Below are positions 20,691 to 27,128 of a stretch of 32,000 nucleotides of DNA, piece by piece; the first letter of the stretch is position 1; every line of letters begins with the position of its first letter. This DNA comes from an uncultured Nitriliruptoraceae bacterium. Lineage in GTDB: Bacteria > Actinomycetota > Nitriliruptoria > Nitriliruptorales > Nitriliruptoraceae. Both the position numbers and the translations under genes were made by a program. The notes beneath the pieces were generated by a model. The model did no database searches, was not told the DNA's origin, and saw only the letters and a list, made by a program, of their open reading frames with translations. The stretch spans positions 2,389,136 to 2,421,135 of the forward strand of contig OY968778.1 in the NCBI GenBank assembly GCA_963695235.1, given 5' to 3'.

Positions 20691-21710
20691 TCAGGCGCCG
20701 GGTTGCCCGGGCGAGGGCGCCCACGCCTTGGCGTCGATCGCCTGCTGGCCGGCGTGATAGCTGGAGCGGACCATCGGCCCGGCCTCGATGTGCGCGAACC
20801 CCAGCTCCACCTCGCCGTAGGTGCGGAACGCGGCGAACGTCTCCGGCGTGACGTACCGGTCCAGGTGCAGGTGCTGCGACGAGGGCTGGAGGTACTGCCC
20901 GATCGTGAGGGTGTCCACCCCGGCGGCACGCAGGTCCCGCATGCAGGCGTAGACCTCCGCGTCCGTCTCGCCCATGCCGAGGATCAGGTTGGACTTCACG
21001 GCCGTGGTCGCCGGGAACCGGGCGCGTGCGAGTGCCAGGAACGCGAGGCCACGGTCGTAGTCGAAGGCGGGCCTGATGACGGGGAACAGCCGGCGGGTCG
21101 TCTCGAGGTTGAAGGCGAACACGTCGGGCTCGGCCGCGACGACCTGCTCGAGCGCCAGTGCACCCCGGGTGGGCTCCTGGCCGTAGCCGAAGTCGCTCGG
21201 CAGTACCTCGACGCCGACCTCGGGTGTTCGCGAGCGGATCTGACGGATCGTCTCGGCGACCAGCCAGGCGCCACCGTCGTCGAGGTCGTCACGCGCCACC
21301 ATGGTCACGACCGCGAAGCGCAGGCCGAGGTGCTCGACGGCCTCGGCGACCCGGCGCGGCTCGTCCACGTCGTAGCCCTTGGGCTTGCCCGTCTTGATCT
21401 GGCAGAAGCCGCAGCGGCGGGTGCAGTCCTCGCCTCCGATGAGGAAGGTCGCCTCGCGCATCTCCCAGCACTCGTAGATGTTCGGGCAGGCCGCCTGGGC
21501 GCAGACCGTGTTGAGCTCGAGCCCCTCCATCAACCGTGTCACGTCGGTGAAGTTGCTGCCGTAGGAGGCCTTCACCTTGAGCCAGTCGGGCTTGCGGCCG
21601 GCAGGCAACGAGGTGTCCACCGTGCGACGGACGACCCCGGCGCGCTGGACGCGCTCCTTGCCGAGGACGGCGAGCGTGCGGGCCCCCTCCGGGATCACGG
21701 GCTCGGTCAC
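20691..21710 (-). CDS. lipA: Lipoyl synthase (radical SAM)
   Basis: 339 aa from GTG 21710. N-terminal cluster motif CAQAACPNIYEC and radical-SAM motif CTRRCGFC. Start overlaps the lipB stop (GTGA, 21707-21710). The track ORF start at 21875 lies inside lipB. Confidence 0.93.
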   Translation of the reverse strand: MTEPVIPEGARTLAVLGKERVQRAGVVRRTVDTSLPAGRKPDWLKVKASYGSNFTDVTRLMEGLELNTVCAQAACPNIYECWEMREATFLIGGEDCTRRCGFCQIKTGKPKGYDVDEPRRVAEAVEHLGLRFAVVTMVARDDLDDGGAWLVAETIRQIRSRTPEVGVEVLPSDFGYGQEPTRGALALEQVVAAEPDVFAFNLETTRRLFPVIRPAFDYDRGLAFLALARARFPATTAVKSNLILGMGETDAEVYACMRDLRAAGVDTLTIGQYLQPSSQHLHLDRYVTPETFAAFRTYGEVELGFAHIEAGPMVRSSYHAGQQAIDAKAWAPSPGQPGA

Positions 21711-22444
21711 GAGGCAGCCTTGTGGACGTCGAGGAGGTGCAGGTCGGACAGGGGTTCGAGGGTAGCCCCGAGCACGTCGGCGGCTGCACGCTCGACGGCG
21801 TCGACGACGGCTGGCATGGCGACCTCCACACCCAGGCTGGCGAGCGAGCAGACCCCGCGGTCGACGATCCCGCACGGGACGATGCCGTCGAAGTGGGCGA
21901 GATCGGGTGCGACGTTGAGTGCGAAGCCGTGCGATGTCACCCCGCCCGTCGCGACCCGCACCCCGATCGCCGCGATCTTCGCCCCACCGACCCAGACCCC
22001 GGTGAAGCCGGGTGAGCGGCCAGCCGCCACGTCGAAGGTCGCGAGCGCCCGGATCAGCAGCTCCTCCAGCGCCCGGACGTAGTCGACGACACCACGGATC
22101 GACGCGAGCCGCACGATCGGGTAGCCCACCAGCTGCCCCGGGCCGTGATAGGTGACGTCGCCCCCGCGATCGACCTCGACGAGCTCGATCCCGTGACGGG
22201 CGCGCTCGGCCGCGTCGAAGAGCACGTGTGACCGGTCGGTCCGCTTGCCGAGCGTGTACACGGGCGGGTGCTCGAGCAGGAGGAGCACGTCCCGACCGAG
22301 ACCGTCCTGGCGTCGCGCCACGAGGCGCCGCTGCACCTCCCAGGCATCGAGGTAGGGCACGAGGCCGAGGTCCACCACGGCCAGGGGCAGGTCCGCCTCC
22401 GCACGCAGCGAGGCCGCCGACGGGCGCTGGCTCCCCGGCGCCAT
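21707..22444 (-). CDS. lipB: Octanoyltransferase (lipoyl(octanoyl) transferase)
   Basis: 245 aa from ATG 22444. RGGDVTYHGPGQLVGYPI and PCGI motifs. ATG overlaps the sucB stop (ATGA, 22442-22446). Confidence 0.9.
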   Translation of the reverse strand: MAPGSQRPSAASLRAEADLPLAVVDLGLVPYLDAWEVQRRLVARRQDGLGRDVLLLLEHPPVYTLGKRTDRSHVLFDAAERARHGIELVEVDRGGDVTYHGPGQLVGYPIVRLASIRGVVDYVRALEELLIRALATFDVAAGRSPGFTGVWVGGAKIAAIGVRVATGGVTSHGFALNVAPDLAHFDGIVPCGIVDRGVCSLASLGVEVAMPAVVDAVERAAADVLGATLEPLSDLHLLDVHKAAS

Positions 22445-23817
22445 CAGACCCCCAGTTCGGGACCGAAGTCGTGGGTCTGCAGCACGTAGCGCAGGTCCTG
22501 GAGGAAGCGCGCGGCGTCCGCTCCGTCGAGCATGCGGTGGTCGTAGGACATGCAGAGGTAGGTCATCCACCTGATCGCGATCGAGTCTCCGTAGTCGTCC
22601 GACACCACGACGGGGCGCTTCTCGATCGCGGCTGCCGCCAGGATCGCGACCTCCGGCGGGTTGAGGATCGGGGTGTCGAACAACGTGCCGACGGAGCCCG
22701 TGTTGGTCACCGTGAAGGTCCCCCCCGAGATCTCGTCGGGTGTGAGCTTGCGGTTGCGGGCTCGGGTCGCGAGGTCCGCGATGCGCCCGGCGATCCCCGG
22801 GACCGTCAGGTCCTGGGCATCCTTGATGTTGGGCACGAGCAGTCCGCGTTCCGTGTCCACCGCGATGCCGAGGTTGATGGCGCGGTGGAAGGTCGCCGTG
22901 CCGGCCTCCATGTCCATGGAAGAGTTCACCACCGGGTGGCGCGGGAGGACCATGCACACCGCCCGGGCGATGATCGGCAGCGGTGAGAGACCCGCGCCGT
23001 GCGCGGCGCGGAACGCATCCTTCTTCGCCGTCCGGAGGTTCATGACGTTGGTCATGTCGACCTCGACGGCGGCGGTCAGCTGCGCCGTGGTCTGCAGCGA
23101 CTCCATCATCGCCCGGGCGATGGCCTTGCGGACCCGCGACAACTCCTGGGTGACGGTGCGCTGGCCGCCGAAGTCGATCTGCGTCGGCGAGGCCGGTGGC
23201 CGTGCCGGGTCGTCGGGAGCCGACGGAGCCGGCGACGACGGGCGGGTACCAGCCGGTGCGTCCGGGGCCGAGCCGCCGGCGGCGACGGCGCGCTCCGCGT
23301 CGGCACGGGTGATGCGACCTCCCGGTCCGCTGCCCCGCACGTCGTCGGCTGGGAGCCCGGCCTCGCGCAGCAGGCGGCGGACGAGCGGCGAGGTCAGCAC
23401 GCGACGGCCTGCGTCCGGGCCGGTGTCGTCCGATCCCGCGTCCGCGGTGGAGGCGCTGTCGCGGCCGTCGTCGTCGGCGTCCTTCGCGGCCTCGGCGTCC
23501 TCGTCGGTGTCTGCCTCGGTCTCGTCGGCTGCGCCGTCGGTCGTTCCGGTGCCTGCGTCGGTGTCCTTGGTGGGGGTGTCGGAGGCGTCTCCGATGACGG
23601 CGATGACCTGGCCGACCTCGATGGTGTCGTCGACGTCGGCGCGGAGCTCGGTGACGGTGCCTGCGATGGGGGAGGGGATCTCGGTGTCGACCTTGTCGGT
23701 GGAGATCTCGACGATGGGTTGGTCGACGGTGACCTCGTCGCCGACCTCGACGAGCCAGGCGGTGATGACGCCTTCGGTGACGGATTCTCCCAGCTGGGGC
23801 AGCTCGACCTCGGCCAC
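22444..23817 (-). CDS. sucB: Dihydrolipoyllysine-residue acyl(succinyl/acetyl)transferase E2, single lipoyl domain
   Basis: 457 aa from GTG 23817 (AGGAG upstream). Lipoyl domain with the EISTDKV lipoyl-Lys codon at 23692-23694, acidic linker, E3-binding domain (TSPLVRRLLREAGL...GSGPGGRITRAD), and catalytic domain with DHRMLDG. The track ORF (850 aa) runs into lpd as shadow sequence. Confidence 0.92.
   Translation of the reverse strand: MAEVELPQLGESVTEGVITAWLVEVGDEVTVDQPIVEISTDKVDTEIPSPIAGTVTELRADVDDTIEVGQVIAVIGDASDTPTKDTDAGTGTTDGAADETEADTDEDAEAAKDADDDGRDSASTADAGSDDTGPDAGRRVLTSPLVRRLLREAGLPADDVRGSGPGGRITRADAERAVAAGGSAPDAPAGTRPSSPAPSAPDDPARPPASPTQIDFGGQRTVTQELSRVRKAIARAMMESLQTTAQLTAAVEVDMTNVMNLRTAKKDAFRAAHGAGLSPLPIIARAVCMVLPRHPVVNSSMDMEAGTATFHRAINLGIAVDTERGLLVPNIKDAQDLTVPGIAGRIADLATRARNRKLTPDEISGGTFTVTNTGSVGTLFDTPILNPPEVAILAAAAIEKRPVVVSDDYGDSIAIRWMTYLCMSYDHRMLDGADAARFLQDLRYVLQTHDFGPELGV
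23437..23817 (-). repeat. Direct repeat copy A (lipoyl domain + acidic linker, 5' end of sucB)
   Basis: Base-by-base comparison with 25338-25718 (offset 1901) gives 378/381 identical. Mismatches at 23477, 23534 and 23552. Confidence 0.95.
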
Positions 23818-23870
23818 TTCGGTGCGCTCCTGCTCGGTACGGGGTGGGGGCTCGTCGTGTCGGTGGGCGG

Positions 23871-25718
23871 TCAGCCGTGCAGGGCGCGACCGGCCAACGC
23901 GAGGTGGGCCTCGCCGATGGCCTCGCTGAACGACGGGTGCGCGTGGATCAGGTGGGCGACCTCGGTGGGCAACGCCTCCCAGTTGTAGATCAGTTGTGCC
24001 TCCGCGATCAGGTCGGTGGCCCGTGGACCGACGATGTGGACACCGAGGACACGACCGGCACCGCCCTCGGCGTCGTCGTCCTTCTCCGCGACGAGCTTGA
24101 CCATGCCGGTCGCCTTCACCATCGCCGCGCGCCCCAACGCCTGGAACGGGTAGCGCTCGACGACGACGTCGAAGCCGGACTCCTTCGCTGCCGCCTCGGT
24201 GTAGCCGACGGACGCGACCTCGGGGTGCGAGTAGGTGACCTTCGGGACGCCGCGGTAGTCGATGGGCGCCACGTCGAGCCCGGCGAGCTGGTCGGCCACG
24301 AGGAAGCCCTCGGCGAACGAGGCGTGCGCCAGACCCAGGGTGGGGATCACGTCGCCGACCGCCCAGATGCCCTCGACGTCCGTGCGGCAGTACTCGTCCA
24401 CCACCACGAAGCCACGATCGGTCGCCACGCCAGCCGCATCGAGCCCGGCTCCCTCGGTGACGGGCGCGCGGCCGACGGCGACGAGCAGCACGTCGGCGGT
24501 GACCTCCTCGGTGCCCTTGCCGGTGTCGATCGTGCAGGTGACACCGTCGTCGGAGACGCTGACGTCGGTCATCTTGACGCCGGTCATGGTGCCGATGTCG
24601 CGCTTGCGGAACGCGCGCGCGATCTCCTTGGACGCGTCGGCGTCCTCGAGCGGCAGCAGACGGTCCTCGAGCTCGACGACGGTGACGTCGACGCCGAACG
24701 CCGACCACGCGGTCGCGAACTCCATGCCGACGGCGCCCGAGCCGAGGACCAGCGCGGAGCCCGGCAGCTCCTGGAGGTGCAGGGCGTGGTCCGAGGAGAG
24801 CACCCGCTCGCCGTCGAACGGTGCGAACGGCAGCTCGCGTGGCGTCGAGCCCGTCGCGACCACGATCGCCGGCGCCGAGAGGGTGCGCGTGCCGTCGTCG
24901 GTCTCGACCTCGACCGTGTTCGGGCCGGTCAAGCGGCCGGTGCCGAGGATCGTCTCGATGCCGCGACTCTTCAGCGCGCCCTGGAGGCCCTTCCACATCT
25001 TGTCGACGACGGCGTCCTTGTGGGCGTTGAGTGCCGCCACCTCGATGCCGTGGTAGTCGAGGGCGACGCCGAAGTCGGCGGCGTCCTGGGCCGCTTCGGC
25101 GACCTCGGCCGTCTGCAGCACCGCCTTCGTGGGGATGCAGCCCCAGTGCAGGCAGGTGCCGCCCACCTTGTCGCGCTCGATCAGGGCCACCTCGAGGCCG
25201 AGCTGCGCCGCACGCAGGGCCGTCGAGTACCCGCCGGTGCCTGCCCCGAGGACGATGACGTCGACGTCGTGCCCCTCGCCCTTCTGCACGCGGCCGCCGC
25301 GCGGTGCATCGGCGGGAGCCGGGGGCGGGCCGGTCGGCGCGTCCGCGGTGGAGGCGCTGTCGCGGCCGTCGTCGTCGTCGTCCTTCGCGGCCTCGGCGTC
25401 CTCGTCGGTGTCTGCCTCGGTCTCGTCGGCTGCGTCGTCGGTCGTTCCGGTGTCTGCGTCGGTGTCCTTGGTGGGGGTGTCGGAGGCGTCTCCGATGACG
25501 GCGATGACCTGGCCGACCTCGATGGTGTCGTCGACGTCGGCGCGGAGCTCGGTGACGGTGCCTGCGATGGGGGAGGGGATCTCGGTGTCGACCTTGTCGG
25601 TGGAGATCTCGACGATGGGTTGGTCGACGGTGACCTCGTCGCCGACCTCGACGAGCCAGGCGGTGATGACGCCTTCGGTGACGGATTCTCCCAGCTGGGG
25701 CAGCTCGACCTCGGCCAC
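23871..25718 (-). CDS. lpd: Dihydrolipoyl dehydrogenase (E3) with N-terminal lipoyl domain fusion
   Basis: 615 aa from GTG 25718 (GAGGAG upstream). Residues 1-~77 form a lipoyl domain (EISTDKV, Lys codon 25593-25595), followed by a D/E/T-rich linker. The classical E3 follows: [11 protein letters not shown], the redox disulfide [13 protein letters not shown], the NAD-binding motif [11 protein letters not shown], and a C-terminal HAHPSFSE. Confidence 0.92.
25338..25718 (-). repeat. Direct repeat copy B (lipoyl domain + acidic linker, 5' end of lpd)
   Basis: 378/381 identical to 23437-23817. Identity ends exactly at the shared GTG start codon: upstream flanks differ (ggtggcagg vs ttcggtgcg). 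Confidence 0.95.
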
Positions 25719-25991
25719 GGTGGCAGGCTCCTCGTCGGTGCAGGGTGTCGGTGCAGGGTGCGGGGCGCGGTGCAGGTGCGGGTCGCGGGGTCGGCGGGAG
25801 GCGTCGACCGCGTAGACCGCGACGCTAGCGGACCCTCGGCAGGGTCGCGTGCCCCGACAGGGGGCTGACGGCTACCGTTCCCGACCGTGTCGCGCGGTCC
25901 ACGGCCGGATGGTCGCGGCACCGTGCCCACCTCCACGGCGGTGCTCCCTGAGGGCCCGGCACGGCCGCCGCCTCGACCCGCGGAGCAGCTC

Positions 25992-27128
25992 GTGACCGAC
26001 CGATCGCGACCGACCGCACTGACCGACGCGCACCGCCGCGCCGGCGCCAAGCTGGGCGGGTTCGCCGGCTGGGAGATGCCCCTGCGGTTCGCGGGGACGC
26101 TGGCGGAGCACGCCGCGGTCCGCGAGCACGTCGGGGTGTTCGACGTCTCGCACCTGGGCACCGTCTGGATCGAGGGGGACGACGCGCAGGCCGTCGTCGC
26201 GGCGACGTTAACGAACGACCCGGCCGTCCTCGGGGACGGCGCGTCGCAGTACACGCTGTGCTGCACGGACGACGGCGGCATCGTCGACGACCTGATCGCG
26301 TACCGGCTCGACGCGGCGAGGTGGCTGGTCGTGCCCAACGCCGCGAACACGGCGGCGGTCGTCGACGCCCTGGTCGCGGCCGCGAGCGACCGGGACGCCG
26401 CCGTGCACGACCAGAGCGGCGAGCGGGCCATCCTGGCCGTCCAGGGTCCAGCCGCCTTGCCGCTGGTCGACCGGATCCTTCGGGACCAGGGCGCCGCGAC
26501 GGCAGCGAGCGACGTCGCCCACCTCGGTGTCGTCGACGTCGAGGTGGCCGGCGGGCGCGTGCTCGTGTGCAGGACGGGCTACACGGGCGAGCCGGGCTGT
26601 GAACTGGTGCTGCCGAACGTGCTCGCCGACCGATGGTGGACGGCGCTCGTCGACGCGGGCGCCGTCGCGTGCGGGCTGGCGGCCCGCGACACGTTGCGGC
26701 TGGAGATGGGCTACCCGCTCCACGGCAACGAGTTGTCCGAGGACCACGATCCGTTCGAGGCGCGACTGGCGTGGGCCGTGAAGCTGGACCGGGGAGCGTT
26801 CCGCGGCTCGGAGGCGCTCGCCCGGCGGAAGGCGGCGGGTCCGGTGCGCAGGCTCTGGGGGCTGCGGGTCGACGGCAGGCGCCCGGTTCGTGCGGGCATG
26901 TCGGTCCACTCGGCCGGCTCGGTGGTCGGGACGCTGACCTCGGGGACCCTCTCCCCGACGCTCGGGGTCCCCATCGCGTTGTGCTACCTCGACGTCGCAC
27001 TCTCGCCCGGCGACCGCGTCGACGTCGACCTCCGTGGGACCTCCGTCGGGGCGGAGGTCGTCCGCCCGCCGTTCGTCGACCGCGACCCGCGCGGCACACC
27101 GTCTGCCCCGGCCCGGGCCCACCCATGA
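25992..27128 (+). CDS. gcvT: Glycine cleavage system aminomethyltransferase (T protein)
   Basis: 378 aa from GTG 25992 (GGAG 5 nt upstream). GFAGWEMPLRF, GVFDVSHLG, TGYTGEPGCEL and RDTLRLEMGYPLHGNEL motifs. Confidence 0.92.
   Translation: MTDRSRPTALTDAHRRAGAKLGGFAGWEMPLRFAGTLAEHAAVREHVGVFDVSHLGTVWIEGDDAQAVVAATLTNDPAVLGDGASQYTLCCTDDGGIVDDLIAYRLDAARWLVVPNAANTAAVVDALVAAASDRDAAVHDQSGERAILAVQGPAALPLVDRILRDQGAATAASDVAHLGVVDVEVAGGRVLVCRTGYTGEPGCELVLPNVLADRWWTALVDAGAVACGLAARDTLRLEMGYPLHGNELSEDHDPFEARLAWAVKLDRGAFRGSEALARRKAAGPVRRLWGLRVDGRRPVRAGMSVHSAGSVVGTLTSGTLSPTLGVPIALCYLDVALSPGDRVDVDLRGTSVGAEVVRPPFVDRDPRGTPSAPARAHP

Follow-up and report, generated by a model that had tools for sequence, protein, structure and literature searches.

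A lipoyl-bearing dihydrolipoyl dehydrogenase of Nitriliruptoraceae carries a copy of the neighboring E2 arm, with signs of recurrent gene conversion between the two arms

We analyzed a 32,000-nucleotide window of DNA (contig OY968778.1, genome positions 2389136-2421135, G+C approximately 72%) from the single-contig 3.17-Mb assembly of a soda-lake actinobacterium of the family Nitriliruptoraceae, in which lpd, the gene for a dihydrolipoyl dehydrogenase (E3) with a lipoyl domain, or swinging arm, at its N-terminus, lies 53 nt ahead of the gene for a dihydrolipoyl acyltransferase (E2). The lpd gene (23871-25718, minus strand, 615 residues, GTG start) was identified by translation, Pfam domains, and matches to E3 structures in the PDB, and the E2 gene (22444-23817, minus strand, 457 residues, DlaT/AceF/SucB type) by Pfam and by alignment with Mycobacterium tuberculosis DlaT and the pyruvate dehydrogenase E2 (E2p) of Corynebacterium glutamicum. 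The first-pass annotation of this DNA had described the lpd product as a lipoyl domain, a linker of approximately 70 residues rich in Asp, Glu, and Thr, and a complete E3, and the downstream E2 as one lipoyl, one E3-binding, and one catalytic domain, and Pfam domain searches bore out both descriptions. In Lpd, the matches were Biotin_lipoyl at residues 3-75 (E 1e-21, model positions 2-73 of 73), Pyr_redox_2 at 153-471 (2e-66), and Pyr_redox_dim at 491-604 (5e-30), with Pyr_redox_2, Pyr_redox, and Pyr_redox_dim all above the Pfam cut-offs. The best PDB matches are E3s (E 5e-99 over residues 151-614), and the E3 signatures are present, namely the VLGAGTGGY motif binding flavin adenine dinucleotide (FAD), the redox-active disulfide CxxxxC, and the C-terminal HAHPSFSE, the residues of these signatures being invariant among the 14 family proteins aligned. 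By its domains and motifs, the protein is thus a predicted dihydrolipoyl dehydrogenase. It consists of three parts, all on the minus strand: the lipoyl domain (codons 1-75, 25494-25718), defined by Pfam, the TDKV motif, and the ratio of non-synonymous to synonymous substitution rates (dN/dS), with the lipoyl-lysine in ISTDKVDTE; an acidic flexible linker rich in Asp, Glu, Thr, and Ala (codons 76-150, 25269-25493), defined by alignments; and the E3 core with the FAD, nicotinamide adenine dinucleotide (NAD), and dimerization domains (23871-25268), defined by Pfam and PDB matches. The last approximately 15 linker codons form a conserved E3-specific junction, including Val codon 144 (GTG), the presumed ancestral lpd start. 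In E2, Pfam placed Biotin_lipoyl at residues 3-75 (4e-22), E3_binding at 140-175 (1e-12), and 2-oxoacid_dh at 221-448 (2e-74), giving a lipoyl domain at 23593-23817, an E3-binding domain at 23293-23400, and a catalytic domain at 22474-23157 on the minus strand. An 850-residue open reading frame (ORF) at 22444-24996 was rejected as a spurious upstream extension of E2; a phase shift in the G+C content of third codon positions (GC3) near 23800-23850 and the AGGAG that precedes the GTG at 23817 by 9 nt fix the true start.

Comparison of the two genes at the DNA level revealed a direct repeat on the minus strand, with 378 of 381 nt identical, running in register from the GTG start of both. One copy is formed by the first 127 codons of lpd (25338-25718) and the other by the first 127 codons of E2 (23437-23817), so that each spans the lipoyl domain and approximately 50 linker residues. 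The first 265 nt are identical, and each of the three mismatches (23477, 23534, and 23552) lies in the linker and alters the encoded residue (D/G, D/G, and D/A). Ahead of the repeat, approximately 28 nt 5' of both starts are loosely alike, including an AGGAG 9 nt before each GTG; the Shine-Dalgarno sequences are GAGGAG for lpd (25728-25733, minus strand) and AGGAG for E2 (23827-23831, minus strand). The repeat occurs twice only in the 3.17-Mb genome, and the next-closest lipoyl DNA, that of a second, orphan E2, is 77% identical. Because the identity of 378 of 381 nt begins at both GTG starts, the E3 arm and its translation signals are a DNA copy of those of E2, a feature that the first-pass annotation of the fusion does not mention.

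To place the fusion among relatives, we scored the domain layout of all fetched loci by tblastn with four domain queries, labeling Nitriliruptoraceae as f1, its sister family in the same order as f2, and other families of the same class as f3-f5. The related loci bear the names Nitriliruptoraceae, Nitriliruptor, Egicoccus, and Salsipaludibacter. Apart from one metagenome-assembled genome (MAG) discussed below, a lipoyl-E3 gene followed by an E2 with one lipoyl, one peripheral subunit-binding (PSBD), and one catalytic domain was found in 29/29 distinct Nitriliruptoraceae genomes with the lpd-E2 locus on a spanning contig, complete or multi-megabase assemblies included. The lipoyl-E3 fusion was not found in the sister family, nor in f3-f5 or in 43 loci from elsewhere in Actinomycetota. 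The five sister-family genomes have a plain E3 and a single-lipoyl E2; f5 has a plain E3 and mostly a one-arm E2; f3 and f4 combine a plain E3 with a two-arm E2; and the 43 other loci (Streptomyces, Actinocorallia, Jatrophihabitantaceae, Acidothermus, Acidimicrobiia, and others) have a plain E3, the Streptomyces E2 carrying two arms. In a phylum-wide sample of 401 genomes searched at a threshold of 1e-25, single-frame matches covering arm and E3 came, among the matches listed, from Nitriliruptoraceae only, although a fusion split by a divergent linker could escape this search. Loci outside the family that matched query residues 4-614 proved not to be fusions, since the domain scan assigned their "lipoyl" match to the arm of the downstream E2. 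The first-pass annotation had considered that lipoyl-E3 might be the norm of the order, with multi-lipoyl E2s elsewhere in the genome; we found it to be the norm in Nitriliruptoraceae only. The fusion thus appears, from these comparisons, to be a family-wide trait that is unusual for Actinomycetota and not peculiar to one genome. In the short-read MAGs of the family, contigs often break at the lipoyl repeat (L015, L050-L053, L058, L062, and others), leaving the E3 core alone on contigs of 1.3-2.0 kb. Since the breaks fall inside the repeat, lpd seems to be missing from many bins, and the breaks are themselves an indirect sign of a near-identical repeat in those MAGs.

A tree of the E3 core and E2 catalytic domain recovered the fused family as monophyletic (Shimodaira-Hasegawa-like approximate likelihood ratio test [SH-aLRT] 94) and sister to f2 (SH-aLRT 99), with the two-arm f3 clade nested within the single-arm f5. 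Just past the repeated tract, the junction PSGxK[VI]xKGEGHDxDVIVLG is conserved family-wide, and the E3-specific nature of this junction points to one ancestral fusion. Outgroup Lpd proteins start 6-7 residues ahead of the DV[IV]VLG motif, and the Val matching that start is encoded by GTG here and by GTC, ATC, GCG, or other non-start codons in many relatives, which suggests that the old start was absorbed into the linker and that there is no conserved internal start. The idea of the first-pass annotation that an arm had in effect been moved from E2 onto E3 was not supported: on the evidence of the sister family, where E3 is plain and E2 has a single lipoyl domain, the arm was apparently gained by duplication, copied without loss from E2. 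An ancestral multi-lipoyl E2 that gave one arm to E3, leaving the number of arms unchanged, would fit with the two or three arms of the well-studied actinobacterial E2p proteins (two in M. tuberculosis DlaT, as seen in our alignment) and with the two-arm E2s of f3, f4, and Streptomyces. However, in all five f2 genomes and most of f5 a single-arm E2 accompanies a plain E3, the two-arm f3 lies inside the single-arm f5, and the E3 arm carries the ribosome-binding site, start codon, and N-terminal arm of E2, which marks it as a copy of an only arm rather than of an internal second one; we therefore regard such a transfer as improbable. The most parsimonious reading of these data is a net gain on the Nitriliruptoraceae stem, from a putative f1/f2 ancestor with a plain E3 and a one-arm E2. 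On that stem, the 5' end of E2, from the ribosome-binding site and start codon through the lipoyl domain to most of the linker, would have been duplicated in frame ahead of the upstream lpd. A tandem duplication that began upstream of lpd and reached into the E2 linker, with the first lpd copy lost afterwards, would account for this structure. As a separate observation, the nesting of the f3 two-lipoyl E2s (L123-L125, L127, and L130) points to an intragenic lipoyl duplication of their own.

Comparison of the two arms within each of 27 genomes revealed a DNA identity of 78%-100%, the homology starting near the start codon and ending 218-386 nt further on, and genome-specific substitutions are common to both arms of the same genome. 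In a maximum likelihood tree of 54 lipoyl DNAs and 5 outgroups, at least 14 genomes have their own E3 and E2 arms as strongly supported sisters, while the arms group by gene in a few clades (L046/L057; L033/L036/L038/L034; L044/L061). Forcing a single E3-arm clade costs 458 log-likelihood units (approximately unbiased [AU] test, p = 7e-96). In 17 of 25 genomes, the synonymous divergence (dS) between the two arms is lower than that of the E3 core to any other sampled genome, the latter ranging from 0.22 to 0.86. The grouping of arms by genome, together with the shared ancestral junction, the variable tract ends, and flanks that diverge as orthologs, indicates concerted evolution, in which recurrent gene conversion would have followed one old fusion in most lineages. 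Homologous recombination between direct repeats approximately 1.9 kb apart would repeatedly overwrite one arm with the other, and as crossing-over between the arms would delete the E3 core, presumably only non-crossover conversion products persist. Separate recent fusions in each lineage by repeated duplication would likewise yield arms clustered by genome, but every spanning contig of the family carries the fusion, the E3-specific junction is homologous beyond the converted tract, and the grouping by gene in some clades reflects an old fusion inherited vertically, making this a very unlikely alternative to conversion after a single fusion. A literature search, with partial coverage of the literature, found nothing on a lipoyl-E3 fusion in Nitriliruptoria, on the pyruvate dehydrogenase (PDH) of Nitriliruptor, or on conversion between E2 and E3 arms.

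Analysis of the coding sequence suggested that the E3 arm is expressed and maintained. A Shine-Dalgarno sequence and a start codon stand at the lipoyl N-terminus of lpd in every family genome, with the same arrangement as here; the lipoyl-lysine motif TDKV is kept in 27/27 aligned family genomes; and the linker is hypervariable in length and sequence across the family, with the frame always kept. Where the E3 arm evolves separately, as between L046 and L057, 18 synonymous and 0 non-synonymous changes were counted, and the E3-arm dN/dS, 0-0.36 over all comparisons, is 0.08-0.36 outside this pair, similar to that of the E2 arm. The start signals, the unbroken frame, the invariant TDKV, and the mostly synonymous change together argue that the arm is translated and, on this substitution pattern, under purifying selection. 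An artefact, in which lpd really starts near the GTG of codon 144 and the upstream copy is untranslated or a misassembled repeat, is extremely improbable: codon 144 does line up with the plain Lpd starts of outgroups, and near-identical repeats are prone to misassembly, with many MAG contigs breaking there, but the genome here is a single contig, 29 genomes share the in-frame fusion, each with a Shine-Dalgarno sequence and start for it, the internal Val is no start codon in many of them, the variable linker is always in frame, and the changes in the E3 arm are almost all synonymous. In three MAGs with long contigs (L057, L064, and L065), the lpd frame is interrupted; these breaks are probably assembly indels and not pseudogenes. 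The E3 linker and the E2 linker alike are strongly acidic (rich in Asp, Glu, Thr, and Ser), unlike the Ala/Pro-rich linkers of classical E2s, and both vary greatly in length within the family; this may reflect the haloalkaline habitat.

The E2 next to lpd aligns over its full length with M. tuberculosis DlaT (E 1e-112) and C. glutamicum E2p, and its SYDHRMLDGAD, which contains the catalytic motif DHRxxDG, aligns to both. Its C-terminus LQTHDFGPEL aligns without gaps to LETANFEGDL of C. glutamicum E2p and LEEGAFEADL of DlaT, so that the Phe-containing three-residue insertion is present. This insertion restricts the E2p of those two species to trimers (bioRxiv 10.1101/2020.07.24.212647), and the E2 is, judging by these alignments, an actinobacterial-type E2p with the predicted feature of a trimer-only core. 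The genome also encodes AceE and an OdhA/Kgd-type fusion of 1276 residues in which the succinyltransferase (acyltransferase) domain is present and the lipoyl domain absent, so that, with the E2p-type E2, the parts list of the actinobacterial complex of PDH with 2-oxoglutarate dehydrogenase (ODH) is present. An operon of the branched-chain 2-oxoacid dehydrogenase (BCKDH) type with a one-arm E2 is also present. The genome has two further E3-like genes. No multi-lipoyl E2 was found in the genome, 3/3 lipoyl-bearing E2s having one arm. The orphan second DlaT-like E2 (genome 1517117-1518664, minus strand; L152:4118-5665) has 515 residues with one lipoyl domain, two E3_binding stretches, and one catalytic domain, and no E1 gene adjoins it.

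With no E2 carrying more than one arm, and with a docked E3 dimer that would bring two identical arms, the most likely function of the E3 arm is that of an extra substrate-carrying arm for PDH/ODH. The fusion would be translated from the upstream GTG, and LipB and LipA, as products of the same operon, would lipoylate its arm. The E3 arm would then be loaded by AceE and the lipoyl-less OdhA, unloaded by the acyltransferase sites, and re-oxidized by its own E3 dimer; these partners should be able to use the E3 arm because it has the same protein sequence as the E2 arm. A bound E3 dimer would in this way add two arms to an E2 offering one per chain, and by simple geometry the disordered linker of approximately 75 residues would be long enough for the arm to reach the active site. 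A more tentative and on balance unlikely extension is that the identity of the arms is more than a side effect of neighboring repeats and is maintained for shared recognition by AceE, OdhA, E2, and E3 in a minimal, trimer-based PDH/ODH complex, with the E3 arm serving as a full catalytic arm, for example as the main lipoyl donor of OdhA, and conversion keeping the recognized surface matched across two genes.

A connection of the arm with glycine cleavage had also been raised as a speculative possibility, on the grounds that gcvT (25992-27128, plus strand; assigned by Pfam and by synteny in relatives with and without the arm) is transcribed divergently 273 bp from lpd and that the window lacks gcvH. 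Both observations stand: the 273-bp spacing agrees with the homology-based gcvT start, and gcvH lies outside the window, at genome 2741383-2741733 (E 1e-43), with gcvP at 2727347-2729692. The suggested connection itself was not upheld, as gcvH and gcvP are encoded elsewhere and the synteny predates the arm, the divergent gcvT and lpd-E2-lipB-lipA layout being common to f2-f5 and more distant Actinomycetota, all with an arm-less Lpd. That the E3 arm is an H-protein surrogate for the neighboring gcvT can hence be given hardly any weight, for the divergent position of gcvT and a weak GCV_H Pfam score of the arm are set against proper gcvH and gcvP genes, the same synteny in arm-less relatives, and an arm copied from that of E2p and not from GcvH. 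Nothing in these sequences appears to tie the arm to glycine cleavage beyond the ordinary L-protein role of E3.

Taken as a whole, the best explanation, which we consider quite probable, is a duplication on the family stem, recurrent conversion between the arms, and a use of the E3 arm as proposed above. Several points weigh against it. The fusion protein is a prediction from DNA sequence and its lipoylation a putative step, and an AlphaFold2 model of the full protein (14-row alignment) is too poor to use, its predicted local distance difference test (pLDDT) score averaging 60.5 and staying below 35 in the lipoyl domain and linker. Even in the known fusion proteins P64k and PdhL, the E3-borne arm is not known to take part in catalysis. 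The 100% identical arms in short-read MAGs could partly result from assembly collapse; in answer to this, the genome here is a single contig, and the pattern recurs in several MAGs whose contigs measure 0.6-2 Mb. The dS values are near saturation at a GC3 above 90%, so that the timing is rough. Finally, in one family MAG (G012; L131, C7:43000-49000), the E2 gene has no lpd or gcvT within 4.3 kb upstream, a state that a true rearrangement, loss mediated by the repeat, or incomplete binning could explain. The E2 of this MAG has a lipoyl-PSBD-PSBD-catalytic layout, with two E3-binding domains, and its bin holds no Lpd ortholog.

Downstream of E2 lie lipB, encoding an octanoyltransferase (21707-22444, minus strand; Pfam LplA-B_cat and sequence), and lipA, encoding a lipoyl synthase (20691-21710, minus strand; Pfam Radical_SAM and LIAS_N and sequence). 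The lipB ATG (22444) overlaps the E2 stop codon as TGATG, and the lipA GTG (21710) overlaps the lipB stop codon as GTGA, and this tight chaining of E2, lipB, and lipA suggests that the lipoylation enzymes are co-translated with the two arm-bearing proteins. The match of lipA to its relatives begins at residues 45-60 of a longer ORF, and an mscS-like gene and glnA follow further downstream. On the other side of lpd, the longest gcvT ORF starts at 25887, with similarity to relatives starting only at its residue 41-45, so the true gcvT start is probably near 25992-26007.

The Nitriliruptoraceae fusion would offer a datable independent origin of a lipoyl-E3, confined to one family stem with a sister family lacking it, and a clean case of concerted evolution between domains of two different genes. 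It would also serve as a natural experiment on the number and attachment of swinging arms in a complex whose E2 is thought to be trimer-only and whose OdhA borrows its arms, and cultured members of the family exist (Nitriliruptor, Egicoccus, and Salsipaludibacter). In practical terms, the repeat breaks short-read assemblies, and lpd would therefore often seem to be missing from Nitriliruptoraceae MAGs and may be scored as absent in metabolic reconstructions.

Lipoyl-E3 fusions are already known from Neisseria meningitidis (P64k) and Ralstonia eutropha (PdhL), and the Nitriliruptoraceae protein appears to be of the same kind and to have arisen separately, because in the tree its E3 core falls among plain actinobacterial Lpd proteins, and its arm derives from the E2 of the same organism. 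The E2p of Neisseria has a large core and carries more than one arm. PdhL is the subject of a 1994 paper by Hein and Steinbuechel (PubMed 8021225), as confirmed through PMC2790312. For P64k and the E3 of N. gonorrhoeae, the PDB holds the entries 1bhy, 1ojt, and 5u25, the last with a full-length chain of 602 residues, and the structure of the P64k lipoyl domain is cited in PMC6270654. Like P64k, the protein described here has at its N-terminus a lipoyl domain that a long flexible linker joins to a complete E3, and is encoded in a PDH cluster next to E2. It differs from P64k in an E3 core that matches plain E3s (E 5e-99 to 9e-90) more closely than P64k (1e-76), in a linker that is acidic and not Ala/Pro-rich, and in an E2 of the one-arm, actinobacterial type. 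In PdhL of Ralstonia (Alcaligenes) eutropha, too, the lipoyl domain stands at the N-terminus of an E3, and the gene belongs to the pdh operon. The gene orders differ, being the proteobacterial pdhA-pdhB-pdhL there and lpd-E2-lipB-lipA here, with the gene for pyruvate dehydrogenase E1 (E1p) unlinked. The OdhA of C. glutamicum makes use of the E2p arms (PMC7568260; bioRxiv 10.1101/2020.07.24.212647), and C. glutamicum and M. tuberculosis have a mixed PDH/ODH complex of AceE, OdhA/Kgd, E2p, and Lpd (bioRxiv 10.1101/2020.07.24.212647; PMC7568260; PMC10415282). The parts encoded here resemble that complex in AceE, a lipoyl-less OdhA/Kgd with a succinyltransferase domain, an E2p with the Phe insertion, and Lpd, but there E2p has two or three arms and Lpd none, whereas here each has one. 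Tandem near-identical lipoyl domains kept alike by recombination occur within one E2 in Escherichia coli AceF; in Nitriliruptoraceae, by contrast, the repeats lie in two genes, with the whole E3 core between them.

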